Shown in pieces: positions 3,495 to 12,203 of a stretch of DNA of 24,668 bases (the first letter of the stretch is position 1; each line of letters begins with the position of its first letter). The stretch lies in the NCBI GenBank assembly GCA_016839945.1, contig JAEOTE010000134.1, forward strand, positions 1-24,668, in the 5' to 3' direction. Position numbers and translations under genes: made by a program. The notes below the pieces were generated by a model. It was not told where the DNA came from and did not search any database. It saw only the letters and a program-made list of their open reading frames with translations. This stretch comes from Candidatus Heimdallarchaeota archaeon. GTDB taxonomy: Archaea > Asgardarchaeota > Heimdallarchaeia > Heimdallarchaeales > Heimdallarchaeaceae.

Positions 3495-3576
3495 AATAAT
3501 CAAACAAGCTCATAATAGACTCTATTTTAATTTTTTTATTAGAATATGAAAAACTCACATAATAGAAGTATTAATT

Positions 3577-3623
3577 TTATGATATACCATTTACTTATGA
3601 TATACCGTGTTTTTGATATATCA
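3577..3623. promoter_or_regulatory. Three copies of a TGATATA(C/T)C quasi-palindromic box, putative transcription factor sites
   Basis: TTATGATATACC at 3577-3588 and 3595-3606 (exact 12-bp direct repeat, 18-bp period); perfect palindrome TGATATATCA at 3614-3623. Confidence 0.65.
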
Positions 3624-3625
3624 TT

Positions 3626-3640
3626 GAAAATATTTAAAAT
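3626..3640 (+). promoter_or_regulatory. Putative BRE/TATA promoter of the actin-like gene
   Basis: GAAAA followed by TATTTAAAAT, TATA about 25-30 nt upstream of ATG 3663, as expected for a leaderless or short-leader archaeal transcript. Confidence 0.55.
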
Positions 3641-3662
3641 AAATATGAGAAATCTGGTAATT

Positions 3663-5123
3663 ATGTCAAAATCTGCACAGAACAGCAAACCAAAACATTG
3701 TGGCAAAACCATGATGAGAATTTATATTAGAAAGGGTACTGAGAAAAGAAAGTGGATACCTATTGGTTATTATTGTAATGAATGTTCAAAAATGATAAAA
3801 GATTCAGATTTGATTCCAACACGAAAAATAGATGAGATTCAAGGAGCAGGACCCAAGCTAGTAAATAAAGTTTCAAAACATCAAATTGTTGTTTTAGATT
3901 TAGGATACAGTCTTACCAAAGTTGGTTTTTCTGGAGAAAAAGAACCCAGATTCATTTTTGATACAGCCATATATCTTTCAGAAACAGGTGAATCATTTAT
4001 CCAAAAATCAGATGTAATTGAAAGAAAGAGGATCATTAATTTACGAAAGCAGATTTTCGAAACTAAAGAGAATATGGAAATTAATAAAGATAATTTAGAA
4101 ATCTTCCTTATTCATGTTTTTGAAGCATTAGAAATTAGTCCAACAAACAAATCAATCCTTGTTATAGAAAAGCATCACCAAAGTAATTATGCAGACTACT
4201 TCAAAGGAAGAATTGATGTAATCAATAACTGCACATTACCAGAAAAAACAAAAGAATCCCTAAAAGCTGAAAAAAGAGTAGACTTTGTTGATTATTCCAA
4301 AAATACAATTTCTCATCGAAGAACTATAGCTTCGATGTTATTTGATCAATTTAATATTGCAAAAGTGTATTTTTCAAATGGTGAACTACTTACTCTTTAC
4401 TCAAAAAAACATGTAACAGGTGTTGTTGTGAATATCGGTGCATTGACTTCACGCATTGTTCCAATCTATGAAGGATATATTATTTCCCATAGTGTGAGTG
4501 TTCGAGATTATGGAGGGTATGATGTAGAAGAACAGCTCTATAATTACATTCAAGAAAAGGGAGTTGAGTTGAATGATTCCAATTCTAGAGCTTACATTAT
4601 TCAAAAAAATATCCGATTAGCTTCTGAAGAACATCTCTATGTTTCACTAGATGAAAAAGAAGAACAAAACAAATGGTTAGAATCTGATAAGTTGATAAGA
4701 TCAATCAATATCATCAATGAAACTTACACAATGCTAGATGAAATTAGATTCAAAGCTCCTGAAATCCTTTTCAAGAACGAGCAACTGAGTATAATTAAGA
4801 AACAAGGAAGTTTAGCTGATGCAGTTATAGAAACTATTCAAAAATGCGATAAAGATTTAACTAAAGCATTGTATTCCAACATTATACTTTCTGGAGGAGG
4901 AACAATGTATGAAGGATTTAAAGAAAGGTTCATTCTGGATATGAAGAAGAAACTTCCTGAACACATTGTTATTAATGTTACAGCTGATTCTGATCGATTA
5001 ATCTCTACATGGATTGGGGGATCAATACTTGCAGGATTGAAAGTTTTTGAAGAAAAAGGATTATGGGTATCTAAAGCTGAATATAATGAAAAAGGTTCAT
5101 CAGCCGTAGATAGATGTATCTAG
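3663..5123 (+). CDS. Divergent actin-related protein with N-terminal zinc ribbon and HhH-like motif
   Basis: Actin signatures: VVLDLGYSLTKVGFSGEKEP, VPIYEGY, RFKAPEILF, KCDKDL..LYSNIILSGG.TMY, STWIGGSILA, WVSKAEYNE.G...V.RC. Start moved from 3546 to 3663 because the upstream stretch contains the repeat boxes and TATA. Confidence 0.93.
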   Translation: MSKSAQNSKPKHCGKTMMRIYIRKGTEKRKWIPIGYYCNECSKMIKDSDLIPTRKIDEIQGAGPKLVNKVSKHQIVVLDLGYSLTKVGFSGEKEPRFIFDTAIYLSETGESFIQKSDVIERKRIINLRKQIFETKENMEINKDNLEIFLIHVFEALEISPTNKSILVIEKHHQSNYADYFKGRIDVINNCTLPEKTKESLKAEKRVDFVDYSKNTISHRRTIASMLFDQFNIAKVYFSNGELLTLYSKKHVTGVVVNIGALTSRIVPIYEGYIISHSVSVRDYGGYDVEEQLYNYIQEKGVELNDSNSRAYIIQKNIRLASEEHLYVSLDEKEEQNKWLESDKLIRSINIINETYTMLDEIRFKAPEILFKNEQLSIIKKQGSLADAVIETIQKCDKDLTKALYSNIILSGGGTMYEGFKERFILDMKKKLPEHIVINVTADSDRLISTWIGGSILAGLKVFEEKGLWVSKAEYNEKGSSAVDRCI

Positions 5124-5133
5124 TAGCAATAAA

Positions 5134-6186
5134 CTATTCCAAATTCCATACTTTCCTTGTTTTTTCTTCTAATAATTTCAGATTTGAGAGGGAAGGTTTT
5201 GTTTTTCCTTCTTCTATCTCATGTACTAAATCTACTATGAATTTATTTAATGGAGTTTCAACGTTGTATTTTTCTCCTTGTTCTACAAGGTATCCATTTA
5301 GATAATCCACTTCTGTTTTTTCTCCCTCACTTAAAGATACAAGACTTGAAGTGTATAAATTCTTGTACTTTCTTCCCACTATTTTCATTATTAGTTGCTT
5401 TTTCATATGTTTTAAGGAAATCCCTTTCAGTTCCTTAGAAGTTAGAGCTAGAGTTTCAAATCTAATTTGATTCAAACGTTGTAGTTTGATTCCCTTAGCT
5501 TGAGCTATTTTAATTCCTTCAGTTAGTACTGCTAAGAAAGCTAAACGAGTTCCTTTTCTCTTCAGTTTTTCACCAAGTGTCATACCACTAACCATACCAA
5601 AAGAGGATGTATTAGTATTAATAAGAAGTTTAGTAAATTTAACATCCAAGATATTATCTGACCAACTAGTTGGTTCAATGTTTGATAGAATATTTAGGAG
5701 TTTTTCATCAATTTCTTGTTTGACACCTTTTATTCTACCTATTACTATTTCTCCTTTTGATGTTTTTTCAGATTCAGCTGGACCTATTCTTGTTGCTGCA
5801 AAACTTATTATGCAACTTAGTAATTGATTTGGTTTAAATCTTTCTTGTAACTTTTCTTCGAGTATTCCATTACTCATAACCATCAATGTAGCGTTTTCAG
5901 ACAGTTTGTTCTCAACACGTGTTATAGCATCTTCAGCATGAGTAAGTTTAGTTATTACGATTGCTAAATCCAGATCTTCAGGCAGTTCTTCTATTGTAAG
6001 TACAGGAAAAATATTTTCTTTTACAATGTAATCCCCACTCACTCCTGTAATTTTTAATCCCCTGTTCTTAATAGCTTCTAAAACTGGTTTTTCTCTACAA
6101 GCAGTATGAATTGGGAAACCATTTTTTGCGAAATTGGCAGCTATTATAGTCCCAATAGCACCTATTCCAATAACAGCAGTTTTCAT
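5134..6186 (-). CDS. Ketopantoate reductase (PanE/ApbA) family oxidoreductase, copy 2
   Basis: GIGAIG, ITK, MSNG, TKLLIN, TEVDYLNG, VETPLN; clear paralog of 1091..2149. Confidence 0.88.
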   Translation of the reverse strand: MKTAVIGIGAIGTIIAANFAKNGFPIHTACREKPVLEAIKNRGLKITGVSGDYIVKENIFPVLTIEELPEDLDLAIVITKLTHAEDAITRVENKLSENATLMVMSNGILEEKLQERFKPNQLLSCIISFAATRIGPAESEKTSKGEIVIGRIKGVKQEIDEKLLNILSNIEPTSWSDNILDVKFTKLLINTNTSSFGMVSGMTLGEKLKRKGTRLAFLAVLTEGIKIAQAKGIKLQRLNQIRFETLALTSKELKGISLKHMKKQLIMKIVGRKYKNLYTSSLVSLSEGEKTEVDYLNGYLVEQGEKYNVETPLNKFIVDLVHEIEEGKTKPSLSNLKLLEEKTRKVWNLE

Positions 6187-6235: not shown

Positions 6236-7159
6236 CTATAAATCTTTGAAAGCTTCTATAACTCTTTCAGCAGCTTGAACACTTGCTCGATAGTTTCCTT
6301 CAGCTGTTTGAGCACCTATGTGTGGACTGATTATAACGTGTTCATGTGTTAATAGTGGGTTGTCAGCACTAGGAGGTTCTTTCTCAAAAACATCTGTACA
6401 GTAATAACCTAGTTGTCCAGATACTAATGCGTCATAAGCTGCTTTTTCGTCAACAATTCCTCCTCTTGCGCAATTAACTAACACTGCTCCTTTTTTCATA
6501 AGATTGAACTGATCTGCACCAATCATATTTTTGGTTTCATCTGTTAGAGGAAGATGTAAGCTAATATAATCAGCTTCTTTCAGAATCTCTTCCATAGAAG
6601 GCTTCATATCGACTACAGGATTTTCAGGAACATATGCGTCATAACCTATTGCGTCCATTCCAAGAGCTTTACATTTAACAGCTAAACTGGTACCTATTCG
6701 TCCTGTTCCAATTAATCCTAGTGTTTTACCATCTATTTCTCTTGAAAAAAGTTCCTTTTTCATTGATTTGAATGATTCTGGATTAGATTTAATTTCGCAA
6801 GTACCTTTTACAACATCTCTAGTTGAGGAAAGTATCATTGTTAAAGCTAATTCAGCAACACTGTTAGTAGTTGCCGCAGGTGTGTTTACCACTTTTATCC
6901 CTCTATTCATTGTTACTTCTAAATCAATATTATCGAGTCCGACACCTGCTCTTCCTATTACTTTAAGGTTGATTGCTTTTTCTAACAATTCTCCTCTTAC
7001 TTTTGTTGCAGAACGGATTATTATCGCATCATATTCACCAATGATTTGAGGTAATTCTTCTTTTGGTATATCCCAACCTACTTTGACTTCAAAACCTGCA
7101 TTTTCAAGTATTTCTATTACTTTTTCGTTTAATTTGTCACTTAATAATATCTTAGGCAT
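6236..7159 (-). CDS. serA: D-3-phosphoglycerate dehydrogenase-like 2-hydroxyacid dehydrogenase (short form, no ACT domain)
   Basis: IIRSATKV, RAGVGLDNID, GLIGTGRIG, LVNCARG, DVFEKEP, SPHIGAQT; GGAGG RBS at 7167-7171; directly downstream of a class V aminotransferase. Confidence 0.85.
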   Translation of the reverse strand: MPKILLSDKLNEKVIEILENAGFEVKVGWDIPKEELPQIIGEYDAIIIRSATKVRGELLEKAINLKVIGRAGVGLDNIDLEVTMNRGIKVVNTPAATTNSVAELALTMILSSTRDVVKGTCEIKSNPESFKSMKKELFSREIDGKTLGLIGTGRIGTSLAVKCKALGMDAIGYDAYVPENPVVDMKPSMEEILKEADYISLHLPLTDETKNMIGADQFNLMKKGAVLVNCARGGIVDEKAAYDALVSGQLGYYCTDVFEKEPPSADNPLLTHEHVIISPHIGAQTAEGNYRASVQAAERVIEAFKDL

Positions 7160-7171
7160 TTTATTTCCTCC

Positions 7172-8248
7172 TTACAAATTCCAGATTTCTTCTATTGCAG
7201 CTAAAAGTTCTTTGAGATCATCTAAAGTATGTTCACCCATATGACCAATTCTGAAAGTCTGATCTTTGAGTTTTCCATAGCCATTTGCAATAACAAAACC
7301 TTTTTCAGCTAGAGCTTTGTTTAGTTCTCCAACGTCTTTTCCTAGTTTATTAGCTACAGTTGTAACTGTCACGGATCTGAAACCTTCTTCAGCAAAAAGA
7401 CCAAATCCTTTTTCTAGAGCCCACTTATGTGTGTATTCAGCCATTTCTTCATGTCTTTTGTAAATGTTTTCTGCTCCTTCTTCAAGCATTTGCTTAAGTT
7501 TATGATCCATTGCGTAGAGAAGAGAAATATTTGGTGTTGATGGAGTTTGTTGTTTCTTTCCATAATAATCCATAATTGCTTTCAAGTCTGTATACAATCC
7601 TCTATCTGGAACTTCTTGAGTTCTGTCTAGAGCTTTTTGAGAGACTATACCTACTGCTAATCCTGGAGGTAAAGCAAAACATTTCTGTGTAGAAGCAAAT
7701 ATCAAGTCTGTCCCCATTTCATCTGGCCACAGTAAATCACCTGCCATAGCTGAAACAGCATCAACAACAAGAAGTGTATCTGGATAGAATTTTAGAAGAT
7801 CTCCTATTGCTTGAAGATCTGCTTTTACACCAGTGCTTGTTTCATTCCAGCAAATGGTTAAAACATCATATTCACTTTGTTCAAGTTTCTCTTTAATCAT
7901 ATCAACAGTAATTCCTTTTCCCCATTCAACTTCAAGCTTGTCAGCTTCTTTTCCACAGCCAACAACTGCTTTATACATTCTATCGGAAAATGAACCATTT
8001 ATACAGCAAAGTGCTTTCTTCCCAGGTCGAATCAAATTCCTACCTGTTACATCCATGAAAATTGTACCTGAAGCTGTTAATACTAACACATGCTGTTCTG
8101 TTTTGAAAAAACTCCTCAACTGTGTCAGAACACTGTCATAAAGAGCTGTAAACTCCTTACTTCTGTGACCAACCAGAGGTTTGGTTTGAGCTTGAAGTAC
8201 ATCTTCTTTTACTTCAGTTGGACCAGGAATCCATAATTTCTTGTGCAC
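7172..8248 (-). CDS. Class V PLP aminotransferase (serine-pyruvate/alanine-glyoxylate type; candidate phosphoserine aminotransferase)
   Basis: IPGPTEV, GHRS, NETSTGV, VDAVSA, STQKCFALPPG (PLP Lys), FRIGHMG. Start reassigned to GTG at 8248 because AGGTGA lies at 8254-8259, which also removes the overlap with 8343..8852. Confidence 0.9.
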   Translation of the reverse strand: MHKKLWIPGPTEVKEDVLQAQTKPLVGHRSKEFTALYDSVLTQLRSFFKTEQHVLVLTASGTIFMDVTGRNLIRPGKKALCCINGSFSDRMYKAVVGCGKEADKLEVEWGKGITVDMIKEKLEQSEYDVLTICWNETSTGVKADLQAIGDLLKFYPDTLLVVDAVSAMAGDLLWPDEMGTDLIFASTQKCFALPPGLAVGIVSQKALDRTQEVPDRGLYTDLKAIMDYYGKKQQTPSTPNISLLYAMDHKLKQMLEEGAENIYKRHEEMAEYTHKWALEKGFGLFAEEGFRSVTVTTVANKLGKDVGELNKALAEKGFVIANGYGKLKDQTFRIGHMGEHTLDDLKELLAAIEEIWNL

Positions 8249-8342
8249 TTTTATCACCTTTGTATCAAGAGAGATAAAAAGAGGGGGTAAAAAAAGTTTA
8301 CTGTGTATAGTTGAAAAAAGAGGTTTAAGAAAGATTTTGCAG

Positions 8343-8852
8343 CTATTCTTTGGATGATACAATCCTCTTAACTAAAGCTTCGATAGGGCCCTTATCGGGT
8401 TTTTCAGGAACAGGTAAACCACTCTTTCTATAATCGAACCAAATTAGAACTCCACTATGTATCAATGAGATTAATTGAACTGATAATATAAATACTACAC
8501 AATAAATTAGAGCTTTGTTAGCATTACCAGGAAAGAAAACGATATACGTTGAAACTGGTACAATCAGAAGGCAGATAATAGTGGCTGGAATTCCAAGAAG
8601 AATGTAAACAAGTTCATTCCAGACAAAAAGAAAAACCTCTCCACTTTTTTTACCAATAAAGGGAATAAACAAAGCCATAAAGAGAATCACAAAACCTAAA
8701 GAAACGAATATTAAAGCGAAGATAACTAACAAAACAACATCAAAGAAGAAATTAATAGTAAGTAGTAAGACACTTGCTAAAATGAAAAAGAGTCCAACAA
8801 ATACTCCTTCTCTGAAAATATTCATTTCTTTTAGTTTGTAAACAAATGCCAT
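8343..8852 (-). CDS. Hypothetical integral membrane protein (about 4 TM)
   Basis: Four long hydrophobic segments and a short charged C-tail; same strand as the downstream cluster. Confidence 0.75.
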   Translation of the reverse strand: MAFVYKLKEMNIFREGVFVGLFFILASVLLLTINFFFDVVLLVIFALIFVSLGFVILFMALFIPFIGKKSGEVFLFVWNELVYILLGIPATIICLLIVPVSTYIVFFPGNANKALIYCVVFILSVQLISLIHSGVLIWFDYRKSGLPVPEKPDKGPIEALVKRIVSSKE

Positions 8853-9056
8853 TAATGTATATTGTACATGGACATTTTAAATATTTTTTTTTCAACAAAA
8901 AATCAAAAAAGTATTACATTTTGTTATAAGGTTAAAAATCTCAACTTACTTAAATGTTCATAATTTAAGAATTCTTTATTTTCAGCCTCTCAAACTGGAT
9001 TATAAAATTTGAATATTATGGTAACATTTTTTAGGTAATCTTGTTAGGTGTGTGTA

Positions 9057-10679
9057 ATGAGTATTCAAGACAAGGATAAGCAGAAAGCTGAACTTGAAAA
9101 AACTTTACAAAAGTTTACTGAATTACTTCCATCTGTAAGTCCTGAACCAAAGAAAATCGAAAAAGCTTTAGTAATAATAAATGGAACAGCAAAATCCAGA
9201 ACAGCTGTTTTATTAGCTAGTGAGCTTAATAGATATTTTCAAACACATATAGACGTTATTTGTTTCTATACTGAACAAAAACCAGAGAAAGATAAAACTA
9301 CTAAAGAAAGCTATGAAGATTCACTAGCTTTTGCTTATGAACATCTCAAAAGCGAAGATTTTGAAATCAAAGGACAAATAGTCGAAAACGTTGAAATGTT
9401 AAAAGCTATACTTGATAGCGTCCTACAAACAGTAGAATATGATTTGGTAATCATTCCATCATCATTCATAGGGATGAAAGAAACAAAGGTCTTCGAAGAA
9501 GAGGAAGAAGATACTGAAGCAAAAATAACAGTTATGGGAGATATATTTGAATATTTACTTGATTTTCCAGATATTCCTATAATGTTAGTAGAAAGCGAGA
9601 AAGTGAATCTTGAGCTTCTATGGAAGAATATATGTATTTTCTTTAGCGGAAGCTCTCAAATAAACTATCTTGTAGAAAAAGCTCTGAAATTCAGTCTCAA
9701 GAAAGCTGAATTTCACCTATTAATCAATATAGCTCCAGGTTTTCATGAAGATAAGAATGAAGAGGAATTTGAAGCTCACATAAAGAAGACTAGTGAAGAT
9801 ATTGAAAGGTTTGAACGAGCTAATTCAGAGGTTTTTAAAGAAGCATCTCGATATGTGGATTTTCATTTGATTACTACTGATGAAGTAGAAGTATTCAAAA
9901 ATGAATTACTAACTTTTGGAAAGGATGTTGGAATCATTATTATTCATATGCCTTCAAAACATTCGAGTTTATATGGATTCTTTGTAGATTTACTGGAAGA
10001 TCCTGAAATCACTGTACCTATACTAATATCAAAGAAAAGAGTAACTCCCAAGATTGAAGAAAAAGAAGAAGAGAAAGAAATTCCTGAAGAAAAGGAAGAA
10101 GAAGAAGAAGAAGAAGAAGAAGAAGAAGAAAAAGAGACAATTGTTATAGATGAAGGTTTAAAAGAAACGATTAAAGAAAAAATAAAAAAGGATATCTTAG
10201 GAGAAACTGAAGAACCAGAAGAAGTGAAAGAAAAGGAAGAAATTCCTAAAGAAGAAGTTGTAGAAATCAAAGAAGAAATATTAGAAGAAATACAAGAGGA
10301 AGAAGATATGACAGACATAGAAGAAATCAAAGAAGAAGTAAAAGAAGAAGTAATAAAAGAAATAAAGAAAGAAGTGAAAAAAGAAATTAAAGATGAACCT
10401 AAGAAAGAAGTGAAAAAAGAAGTAACAAAGGAACTAAAGAAAGAAGAAAGCATAGAAGAATTAAAGGAAACCATAATTGAAGAAATAAAAGAAGAAATTG
10501 TTAACGAGATCAAATATGAACTCAAAAAAGATCTAAAAGAACCAAAGAAAGAACTGAAAGAGAAAGTCATAGAAGAAATAAAAGAAGAAGCTGATATAGT
10601 AGAAGAAGAAGAGGAAGAAGTTCCTGAAGAAGAGAAAAAAGAAGAGGAAGAAGTAAAAACAAGAAGAGACTTCGAATAA
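9057..10679 (+). CDS. Universal stress protein (USP)-like domains plus long Glu/Lys-rich low-complexity tail
   Basis: IEKALVIINGTAKSRTAVLLASEL...IDVICF, YDLVIIP and IPIMLV follow the USP pattern, with a second degenerate copy (WKNICIFF...VPILIS); the last ~210 aa are E/K-rich. ATG 9057 preceded by AGGTG. Confidence 0.7.
   Translation: MSIQDKDKQKAELEKTLQKFTELLPSVSPEPKKIEKALVIINGTAKSRTAVLLASELNRYFQTHIDVICFYTEQKPEKDKTTKESYEDSLAFAYEHLKSEDFEIKGQIVENVEMLKAILDSVLQTVEYDLVIIPSSFIGMKETKVFEEEEEDTEAKITVMGDIFEYLLDFPDIPIMLVESEKVNLELLWKNICIFFSGSSQINYLVEKALKFSLKKAEFHLLINIAPGFHEDKNEEEFEAHIKKTSEDIERFERANSEVFKEASRYVDFHLITTDEVEVFKNELLTFGKDVGIIIIHMPSKHSSLYGFFVDLLEDPEITVPILISKKRVTPKIEEKEEEKEIPEEKEEEEEEEEEEEEKETIVIDEGLKETIKEKIKKDILGETEEPEEVKEKEEIPKEEVVEIKEEILEEIQEEEDMTDIEEIKEEVKEEVIKEIKKEVKKEIKDEPKKEVKKEVTKELKKEESIEELKETIIEEIKEEIVNEIKYELKKDLKEPKKELKEKVIEEIKEEADIVEEEEEEVPEEEKKEEEEVKTRRDFE
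10095..10130 (+). repeat. Perfect (GAA)12 microsatellite encoding poly-Glu
   Basis: 36 nt of uninterrupted GAA, in frame within 9057..10679. Confidence 0.95.
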
Positions 10680-10805
10680 GAATATATCAGCAAGATTACG
10701 ATTACAGAATCATAGGGTAAAAAACCCAATAGGAAATTCAAGTGATAAACTTGATTTCATTACAAATAAATAACAAGATTTACACTCTAGAGTGTAGGTG
10801 GTTAA

Positions 10806-12203
10806 TTGGCAGGATTAATACCAGTAAATTTACAGTGGATAGCAACGATAATAATCGTACTTATTGTCTTAGCAACCATCCTGCTATTAATGAAGGAAGG
10901 AATTGATGCAACAAAAATAACAGCTACAGGAGCGTTACTAGTAGCTCTAATTTTTCTAATATTCATGGACTGGGAGCAAGGATTTGTAGATAATTTACAA
11001 TATCATGAAGTTCCAGAAAGTTTTCTTGAAGCATTGGCAAAAACAATAAATGTTGAAGCTATACTTATCATCTTTTCAGTGAGTATAATTGTCGCAATCA
11101 CAAAAGGTGCAGGATTCTTCGATTTTATATCTTTGTCTCTTGTAAAACTAACTAAAGGAGATCCAAGAAAATTAATTCTTGCTCTTGGAGGTTTGACCTT
11201 CTTTGTGAGTATGTTCTTTGATAACTTGTCAGCAATTATTTTATTAGGTTCTTTGACAGTAGTTATCTGTAAACAGCTAGAACTCAACTCGAAACCCTTT
11301 GTTCTGTTTGTTGGAATCAACACGATCATCGGGGGACTTCCAACGCCGGTCTCTTCTTTACCCAATATTATCTTCTTCAACTTATATCAAGGAGAAGGCA
11401 TGAATTTCATAATTTTTATGGCCTATATGTTTCCTATAGCTATCTTCTTTTTTGGACTAGCAACAGCTTTCTTCTTCTTTGTTTATAGAAAGGATATCCT
11501 CATCGAAGTTTCAGATGAAAAGAAAGAACAACTATCTAGAATTAATCCTTGGTCAGGAATTGAGGATAGAAAAAATATCTGGAAATCTATCACCTTACTT
11601 GGAGTACTTTTTGTTGGTTTCTTGCTGACTAGTATCCCTGGAAATCCAATAGATGTAGCTTTTGTAGCTTTAATTGCTACAATCTTTGGAATTTATTTAT
11701 TCAGAACTGATTTGAAACACTATTTAGAAGAGGGAGTAGAATGGACTATAGTAGTTTTCTTTGTTGCTTTATTCGTTTTAATGGGTGTTCTTACAGCTTC
11801 AGGAGCACTAAAGCCTTTAACAAATATTTTAACTGGTGTTCTGGGAGAAGAAATTACTACCAGAGGACAAATTTTAGTTGCATTGATAATTGGAGCAGTA
11901 GGTTTACCTATAACAGGATTTCTTAATGGATCTTCAGCTGCAATAATCTTCTCATATATTTTCAAAACACTCCCAGCAGGAATTTCAACAGGTTTGTGGT
12001 TTGGTTTTGTTCTTTCTGGAAATATAGGAGGAGCACTGACACCTTTAGGTTCAATAACAATTCTAATGGCATTGGAAATACTAAATAGAGAAGGAGAAAC
12101 TATGTCTTTCTTACAATATATGGTAAAAATGCTCCCTCTCACTCTAGTTTTGGGAGTACTGAGTATAGGTTATTCTGTGGTACTCATAGCATTAGGATTA
12201 TAG
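10806..12203 (+). CDS. ArsB/NhaD/CitMHS (IT superfamily) secondary transporter
   Basis: About 12 hydrophobic helices; SMFFDNL, IGGLPTPVSSLPNII, VEW..VVFFVALFVLMG and GNIGGALTPLGS motifs; TTG start after AGGTGG. Confidence 0.85.
   Translation: MAGLIPVNLQWIATIIIVLIVLATILLLMKEGIDATKITATGALLVALIFLIFMDWEQGFVDNLQYHEVPESFLEALAKTINVEAILIIFSVSIIVAITKGAGFFDFISLSLVKLTKGDPRKLILALGGLTFFVSMFFDNLSAIILLGSLTVVICKQLELNSKPFVLFVGINTIIGGLPTPVSSLPNIIFFNLYQGEGMNFIIFMAYMFPIAIFFFGLATAFFFFVYRKDILIEVSDEKKEQLSRINPWSGIEDRKNIWKSITLLGVLFVGFLLTSIPGNPIDVAFVALIATIFGIYLFRTDLKHYLEEGVEWTIVVFFVALFVLMGVLTASGALKPLTNILTGVLGEEITTRGQILVALIIGAVGLPITGFLNGSSAAIIFSYIFKTLPAGISTGLWFGFVLSGNIGGALTPLGSITILMALEILNREGETMSFLQYMVKMLPLTLVLGVLSIGYSVVLIALGL

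Follow-up and report, generated by a model that had tools for sequence, protein, structure and literature searches.

The window analysed here is a stretch of 24,668 nucleotides from a Candidatus Heimdallarchaeota archaeon of the family Heimdallarchaeaceae (assembly GCA_016839945.1, contig JAEOTE010000134.1, positions 1 to 24,668 of the forward strand). Among genes for metabolic enzymes it carries a gene for a divergent member of the actin family with a putative zinc ribbon at its N-terminus, which we refer to as the zinc-ribbon actin-related protein (ARP) (Table 1). The longest open reading frame (ORF) from the first ATG, at position 3546, encodes 525 amino acids and adds a 39-residue extension that is not conserved. 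The orthologues, which are 471-493 amino acids long, all begin at a methionine equivalent to that at position 3663, and the gene calls on other contigs give a protein of 486 amino acids. Because of this common start, and because the segment from 3546 to 3662 is AT-rich and promoter-like and carries a TATA-like element some 20-30 nt upstream of 3663, we placed the start codon at 3663. The ATG at 3546 is thus probably not used, and the gene probably extends from 3663 to 5123.

The Pfam Actin profile (PF00022) matched residues 112-523 of the 525-residue ORF over profile positions 4-407 of 410, with an E-value of 1.2e-63 and a score of 215.6 bits against a cut-off of 27. An AlphaFold2 model of the 486-residue protein, built on an alignment of 65 sequences, obtained a predicted local distance difference test (pLDDT) score of 87.3 and a predicted template modelling score of 0.83. 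The model could be superposed on G-actin with a Z-score of 42.7 and a root-mean-square deviation of 2.1 Å over 350 residues (model residues 74-486 against actin residues 6-375), and Foldseek gave template modelling scores of 0.85-0.90. The best match among solved structures was the "HC1 actin" in PDB entry 9wc4. Judging from the model, the protein has a complete four-subdomain actin fold.

The nucleotide-binding site within this fold has been extensively rewritten. A first-pass annotation, made from the sequence alone, had claimed from an alignment by eye that the ATPase residues are systematically substituted in three motifs (DLGYSLTK, YFSNGELLTLY and NIGALTSR), whereas the adenine motif LSGGGTMY and the C-terminus remain actin-like. 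All four motifs are found where it had placed them; the last one lies outside the range of 3885-4480 that it had given, yet within the same ORF. The substitutions S14Y, G15S, Q137G, D154N, D157A, G158L and H161R were reproduced exactly and without gaps by both HMMER and MAFFT. In a phmmer search against PDB chains, the motif stretches were aligned gapless to DNG(T/S)G..K, SMQAVLSLY and (D)(S/A)GDGV(T/V)H of HC1 actin and Arp1. The codons of G137 and of the adjacent E138 are located at 4380-4382 and 4383-4385, respectively.

The MAFFT alignment comprised 32 family members plus a canonical set of 33 sequences, drawn from Asgard lokiactins, eukaryotic actins and Arp1, with residues numbered as in a 375-residue fungal actin and D11 in register. 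This comparison with lokiactins and Arp1, which had been proposed as a check at first pass, showed that the substitutions are family-wide. The register is fixed by flanks that are invariant in both groups (V9, D11, G13, K18, G20, P27 and R28; L142 and Y143; G150, V152, G156, P164, I165, Y166 and G168), and the seven substitutions can therefore be taken as exact. A shift in register that would restore the catalytic residues was ruled out, since all three motifs are gapless between these flanks.

None of the 32 family members keeps N12 (replaced by L, I or P), G15 (S, C, K, N, Y or T), D154 (N, G, S or H), D157 (mostly A or S), G158 (variable), the phosphate back-door residue R177 (I, V, T or F), K213 (S, T, A or I) or K336 (mostly L). 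H161 is likewise absent, with an arginine in its place in 32/32, and A138 has been replaced by glutamate in all 32. A single member keeps Q137, which is otherwise replaced by G, K or E, and nine keep S14, for which the replacements are variable. Residues H73 and G74 of the H-loop sensor fall in an alignment gap. By comparison, N12, G15, Q137, D154, D157, G158 and H161 are retained in 28-33 of the 33 canonical sequences. Among the residues kept in the family are D11, G13 and G156 (32/32 each), K18 (31/32) and Y306 (28/32), and the adenine motif is actin-like as claimed, with E214, G301 and G302 in 32/32. The most divergent member, P0122, which is 40% identical, has E137, D138, N154 and R161.

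One or two fully canonical actins are also present in the same genus, and the two found in one of its genomes retain every canonical site residue, which indicates that the substitutions are specific to the zinc-ribbon paralog. The canonical lokiactin of the source genome is represented by two overlapping fragments, each at a contig end (C75:28-714 and C64:18073-18585), which show 99.6% and 98.3% identity to an intact actin from a congener.

Table 1. Features of the zinc-ribbon ARP gene and its surroundings, in window coordinates.
Feature	Position	Strand	Remarks
PanE/ApbA-like paralogs bracketing the DUF1015 and actin genes	1091-2149 and 5134-6186	-	
Three GATATAYC boxes	3581-3622	+	box starts at 3581, 3599 and 3615; directly upstream of the TATA-like TATTTAAAATAAAT (~3631-3644)
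Zinc-ribbon actin-related protein gene	3663-5123	+	486 amino acids, stop codon included
N-terminal basic zinc-ribbon-like module	3696-3788	+	H-C ... C-x-x-C; YIRKGT..RKW core
Phosphate-1 loop DLGYSLTK	3897-3920	+	D11, G13, K18 kept; N12L, S14Y, G15S
Remodelled subdomain 2	3975-4094	+	no recognisable D-loop; H73/G74 absent
Family-specific insert of 41 residues in the proline-rich loop	4182-4304	+	between actin N111 and P112, from alignments
Hinge helix YFSNGELLTLY	4368-4400	+	Q137G; invariant A138E
Phosphate-2 loop NIGALTSR	4431-4454	+	G156 kept; D154N, D157A, G158L, V159T, H161R
Ribose/adenine side of the cleft	4623-4631	+	K213S; E214 kept; K215E
Adenosine motif LSGGGTMY	4887-4910	+	G301, G302, Y306 kept; T303G
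Second hinge/adenine strand	4998-5003	+	K336L, Y337I
Actin-like C-terminal segment, part of the barbed-face cleft	5010-5120	+	from alignment
2-hydroxyacid dehydrogenase	6236-7159	-	downstream, on the strand of the PanE/ApbA genes
Class V aminotransferase	7172-8362	-	downstream, on the strand of the PanE/ApbA genes

The positions of the nucleotide site differ greatly in how strongly they are constrained. Ten phosphate and catalytic positions (12, 14, 15, 16, 137, 154, 157, 158, 159 and 161) have a mean entropy of 1.68 bits in the family (59th percentile), which makes them about as variable as any average site, versus 0.44 bits in the canonical actins. They vary more than randomly drawn sets of canonically conserved sites do (P = 0.017), and most of the replaced positions in the phosphate loops are free to drift within the family. 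The mean is 0.05 bits for the anchors D11, G13, K18 and G156, and 0.59 bits (24th percentile) for the positions on the adenosine side, although three of the latter carry new residues. The phosphate clamp and the water-activating network thus appear to be under relaxed constraint, while the adenosine pocket, the anchors of metal and phosphate and the new R161/E138 pair appear to be constrained. Such a pattern fits a non-hydrolyzing protein that perhaps still holds a nucleotide.

A mechanistic precedent is provided by actin itself. In F-actin, Q137 holds the nucleophilic water, which D154 and H161 activate via a bridging water; the Q137A mutant is slow and the triple mutant Q137A/D154A/H161A is without measurable ATPase activity, and the H-loop (72-77) and the proline-rich loop (108-112) move in the G-to-F transition (PMC9646518). 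The positions replaced in the engineered triple mutant are also replaced in the Heimdall family, but here the replacements are natural (G, K or E at 137; N, G, S or H at 154; R at 161) and accompanied by many further changes in the phosphate loops. The family may in effect represent a natural, conserved version of the dead triple mutant, in which the coupling loops have been remodelled too. The proposal at first pass of a hydrolysis-dead or altered-nucleotide, ARP-like scaffold is supported by the replacement throughout the family of Q137, D154 and H161 as well as of G15 and G158, the two glycines that grip the beta- and gamma-phosphates via their backbone amides, by the entropy values, and by the precedents of the triple mutant and of Arp7 and Arp9 in yeast. 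From the alignments, we conclude that the protein very probably lacks an actin-type ATPase activity. We consider it likely that it represents a lineage-specific ARP of the Heimdallarchaeaceae, in which the actin fold has been kept whole while the polymerization-coupled ATPase has been lost. The term ARP-like is used here by analogy and does not imply orthology.

An alternative hypothesis, to which we assign a low probability, is that the active site has been re-tooled, such that E138 (E137 in P0122) would serve as the general base, as a glutamate does in MreB, ParM and Hsp70, and R161 would stabilize the transition state, with K18 and D11 holding the phosphates and the metal. This would account for the presence of E138 and R161 in all 32 members, for the invariance of D11, G13, K18 and G156, for the conservation of the adenosine pocket (0.59 bits) and for the combination E137/D138/R161 in P0122. 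Arp7 also has a glutamate at the position of Q137, though Arp7 is inactive (PMC5969521). However, residue 138 is located one helical step from 137, and at 15 and 158 the glycines have given way to a variable set of residues, many of them bulky (L, K, F or Y). Positions 157-159 drift in a manner unlike that of a site under catalytic selection, and a new catalytic site fits poorly with these data because catalytic loops do not drift. Furthermore, the phosphate-2 aspartate is replaced by a variable N, G, S or H. To our knowledge, this aspartate is kept by all hydrolyzing ATPases with an actin fold, as captured by the Bork-Sander-Valencia motifs.

The loss of hydrolysis does not by itself tell whether the cleft is occupied, and the two yeast proteins differ in this respect. 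Arp7 binds ATP, with a Kd of 94-200 nM in its complexes, without ATPase activity; it keeps 9 of 26 site residues and carries the substitutions D11H, K18V and Q137E (PMC5969521). Arp9, on the other hand, is free of nucleotide (PMC5969521). Like the Heimdall family, both have an actin fold with replaced site residues; the two yeast proteins act as non-hydrolyzing scaffolds, and Arp7 shares with P0122 an acidic residue at the position of Q137. They differ in that Arp7 is without D11 and K18, both of which are kept in the Heimdall family, and in that Arp7 and Arp9, which have no zinc ribbon, form a heterodimer on the HSA helix of a remodeller, a kind of partner that is not known for the Heimdall family.

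A nucleotide-free scaffold like Arp9 would have a cleft that is empty or filled by its own side chains, and D11, K18 and the paired glycines would have been kept only for folding. The loss of N12, S14, G15, D157, G158, K213 and K336 is what would be expected in that case, and the residues now present at 15 and 158 should protrude with their side chains into the phosphate site. We nevertheless find this rather unlikely, given the strict or almost strict conservation of D11, G13, K18, G156, E214, G301, G302 and Y306 in a family that evolves fast, and given that Arp7 binds ATP with fewer anchors. Since the family keeps more of the binding anchors than Arp7, we rate the chance that an adenine nucleotide is still bound as slightly better than even. 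A pseudo-ATPase need thus not be nucleotide-free, because D11, G13, K18, G156, E214, G301 and G302 have all been retained.

The surfaces of the protein have been remodelled to very different degrees. Identity to the canonical actins is 53% in the barbed-face cleft and 44% at the longitudinal contact of subdomain 3, but 20% in the hydrophobic plug, 17% at the lateral contacts, 9% at the tip of subdomain 4, 9% in subdomain 2 and 4% in the D-loop. The value for the barbed-face cleft may be compared with 35-37% for the enclosing subdomains 1 and 3, in agreement with the claim that the C-terminus is actin-like. A kept barbed face in combination with lost pointed and lateral faces is what would be expected of an Arp that docks via its cleft and does not form homopolymers. 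Action on lokiactin through the barbed face is one possibility, which we put forward tentatively and at somewhat less than even odds.

Compared to lokiactin and actin, the protein shares the fold across all subdomains at about 31-33% identity, together with D11, G13 and K18, G156, E214, G301 and G302, the barbed cleft and the C-terminus. It differs from lokiactin by the absence of Q137, D154 and H161, G15 and G158, the H73 loop and a conserved D-loop, plug and tip of subdomain 4, and by the addition of the 41-residue insert in the proline-rich loop and of an N-terminal extension of about 70 residues that includes the zinc-ribbon-like module. Arp1 keeps a canonical nucleotide site and polymerizes into the minifilament of dynactin. 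In our searches, Arp1 (PDB 5nw4_G and 6f1t) obtained scores as good as those of actin (E-value 6e-48), and it has an actin-like barbed face as well. Divergent paralogs that coexist with conserved lokiactin have previously been described as Asgard ARP clades, including asgardactin 02-05 (bioRxiv 10.1101/2020.06.16.150565; PMC9834061). The descriptions of these that we examined mention neither a zinc-ribbon fusion nor a loss of catalytic residues.

The two added segments are conserved features of the family. The insert in the proline-rich loop carries a conserved KGRxDVINN..LPEK motif and forms three short helices in the AlphaFold2 model. The N-terminal module, within the first 75 residues, is very basic, and AlphaFold2 predicts for it a ribbon of three strands (pLDDT 85-92). 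Its four putative ligands, H12, C13, C38 and C41, are invariant in the 28-33 sequences compared, and the first ligand pair of this putative zinc ribbon is H-C rather than CxxC. No significant match to Pfam and no look-alike in the ESM Atlas was found for the module, and its best fold matches, to Zf-GRF and small zinc-ribbon proteins, were weak (Z-scores of 2.0-2.4). A helix-hairpin-helix-like stretch that had also been suggested at first pass (IDEIQGAGPKLVNKV, 3828-3872) found no support, as it is not conserved in the family and was modelled with pLDDT values mostly below 50.

The family has a narrow distribution. A word-indexed search of 5.8 billion proteins identified 33 relatives, two of them fragments, with E-values of 1e-86 to 1e-298 and 45-93% identity. 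All named relatives belong to the Heimdallarchaeota or Heimdallarchaeaceae, after which there is a sharp drop in score to ordinary actins of about 30% identity. Likewise, when 1.84 billion cluster representatives were searched exhaustively with a profile, only four from the family came up ahead of the same drop. Among 83 Heimdallarchaeia genomes, full-length or fragmentary orthologs are present in 17 of the 24 other genomes of the same genus, in both genomes of a second genus of the family and, at 40% identity, in a single genome from a neighbouring family, and nowhere else. Only canonical actins or other divergent paralogs are present in the remaining families of the class and in two closed genomes of a further genus. 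As judged from these searches, the family is confined to two or three genera.

In a maximum-likelihood tree (LG+C20+F+G4), in which Arp1 was the only one of Arp1-10 included, the family forms a single clade with 100/100 support. Its stem is very long (1.1 + 0.45 substitutions per site) and has no resolved attachment point. The clade is separate from Arp1 and from the other divergent paralogs of the Heimdallarchaeaceae. Orthology to Arp1 was ruled out, since the named Arp1 sequences are placed inside a eukaryotic cluster of actin and Arp1, apart from the family.

The other divergent paralogs include a different one of 379 amino acids, identified in other genera of the Heimdallarchaeaceae (L028:796-1935 in genome G006 and L030:757-1896 in genome G002). 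Its nucleotide site is also degenerate, with Q137S, with H161 replaced by I or D, and with D11E and K18R in one of the two, which suggests that the loss of ATPase residues is recurrent among the actin paralogs of the Heimdallarchaeia. In two genera, a gene for a very basic protein is located directly upstream of a second actin-type gene (L027:167-1036 in genome G023 and L030:24-764 in genome G002). The basic protein starts with MND(K/E).. and contains the motifs GPGRP(K/R)KYAT and ERK(K/R)AYRERKKE, which resemble an AT-hook and a basic region.

A divergent paralog with a degraded active site could in principle be a decaying duplicate, that is, a redundant actin copy without a function of its own that evolves under relaxed selection. 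Two observations point in that direction: the orthologs are 47-57% identical, versus 74-86% for the neighbouring DUF1015 and 2-hydroxyacid dehydrogenase proteins, and two genomes of the same genus have lost the gene from the syntenic site. Yet the dN/dS ratio is 0.14 in the comparison with the closest genome-borne ortholog (genome G029; 85-91% identical), the ORFs are intact in about 20 genomes, and neither stop codons nor frameshifts were observed in about 20 full-length orthologs. The family also has 40 invariant and about 70 nearly invariant columns, including family-specific ones such as the new T17, E138 and R161, the putative zinc ligands and the motif of the insert, and the promoter array is conserved. 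We therefore regard a decaying duplicate as highly improbable and consider, on the basis of the substitution pattern, that the family is under purifying selection. That the gene is a pseudogene was ruled out by the intact ORFs and the dN/dS ratio of 0.14.

Seven genomes of the same genus are without an ortholog. Five of these, all but genomes G008 and G027, were checked, and two represent real losses at the syntenic site. What remains in genome G025 (L037:1265-1495) is the set of promoter boxes together with the final 18 codons of the gene, now with a stop codon (..AVD*CI), whereas in genome G031 (L035:787-893) DUF1015 and ApbA are 107 bp apart with neither the gene nor the boxes between them. 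The absence is uninterpretable in genomes G017 and G018, where DUF1015 is at a contig end, and in genome G024, where DUF1015 was not found with the query used.

The boxes upstream of the gene provide a further family-specific feature. Arrays of three boxes directly precede the TATA-like element at all 12 of the 12 orthologous loci examined, also in a genus with a different synteny. Single GATATAYC boxes occur at chance frequency in the 3.0-Mb assembly (214 observed versus about 230 expected), but the array before the actin gene is the only cluster of three boxes within 60 nt in that assembly, and the only other spaced pair of boxes detected in a pattern search lies inside a coding repeat. We take this distribution to mean that the array is a promoter element specific to this gene.

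The flanking genes are metabolic and encode DUF1015, the two PanE/ApbA paralogs, the 2-hydroxyacid dehydrogenase and the class V aminotransferase. The order DUF1015, ARP, ApbA, 2-hydroxyacid dehydrogenase and aminotransferase is kept only within the genus, where most of the block is syntenic, and the neighbours are unrelated in two other genera (PGK, Exo_endo_phos and TldD; FeoB and HxlR). Since the gene order is not conserved beyond the genus, it implies no partner gene. Further downstream, an ORF of 543 amino acids (9048-10679, plus strand) has no Pfam match and is 60-70% identical in congeners. It spans the bin from 10001 to 11000, where a GC skew of 0.37 and an AT skew of 0.47 indicate a very strong strand bias.

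How might such a protein work? We hypothesize that a lineage-specific ARP without hydrolysis would undergo no cycling between ATP and ADP and form no actin-type homopolymers. A nucleotide, or nothing at all, would be held statically in the cleft. At first pass it had been suggested that the glutamate next to G137 might partly compensate for the loss of Q137. A conserved new role for the invariant E138/R161 pair is plausible, and one hypothesis is that the pair fills the region formerly taken by the catalytic water and the gamma-phosphate, and thereby ties the two lobes together. The preserved barbed face may then serve to bind a partner, either lokiactin by its pointed face or some helix or peptide that can be accommodated in the cleft. 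Through its basic zinc-ribbon-like head the complex could in turn be anchored elsewhere, perhaps on nucleic acid.

Several points speak against such a scenario. The invariant residues D11, G13, K18, G156, E214, G301 and G302 together with E138 and R161 could also be taken as signs of an active site that has been re-tooled. A glutamate is present at position 137 in P0122, and in MreB, ParM and Hsp70 a glutamate fills the role that corresponds to that of Q137. No linked partner gene emerges from the neighbourhoods in any of the genomes compared. Where it occurs, the gene is kept by selection, yet it is dispensable, and so is its role, because two congeners have deleted it. Finally, the plug formed by R161 and E138, the occupancy of the cleft and the role of the insert are what we infer from the sequences.

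Asgard ARPs as a class and non-hydrolyzing Arps are already known. What seems to be new is the combination in an archaeon of a replaced catalytic trio, kept anchors, a preserved barbed face, a zinc-ribbon-like head and a private promoter array. A literature search for "Asgard actin" together with "zinc ribbon" returned no paper, and the degenerate site of the family is not described in the literature on Asgard actins that we examined. More speculatively, the protein could be an archaeal functional counterpart of the nuclear Arps, a pseudo-ATPase that is tethered to DNA via its zinc-ribbon head, binds the three boxes of its own promoter and thereby regulates itself, perhaps also recruiting lokiactin or another partner through the barbed face. 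We consider this unlikely, but if true, it would mean that the use of an actin fold on nucleic acid does not require a nucleus.

The narrow distribution, with losses, indicates a lineage-specific invention rather than an ancestor of the eukaryotic Arps, which limits the evolutionary reach of the finding. As a soluble protein of 486 amino acids, it would be a tractable test case for what becomes of the actin fold after hydrolysis, and related Heimdallarchaeaceae are now in enrichment culture (bioRxiv 10.1101/2025.02.26.640444). Scaffold Arps that neither hydrolyze ATP nor polymerize are a hallmark of eukaryotes, in which they serve in chromatin remodellers and dynactin, and the timing and mode of this transition are an open question in eukaryogenesis. 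Our findings suggest that the same transition may have taken place in an Asgard archaeon, beside fully canonical lokiactins.

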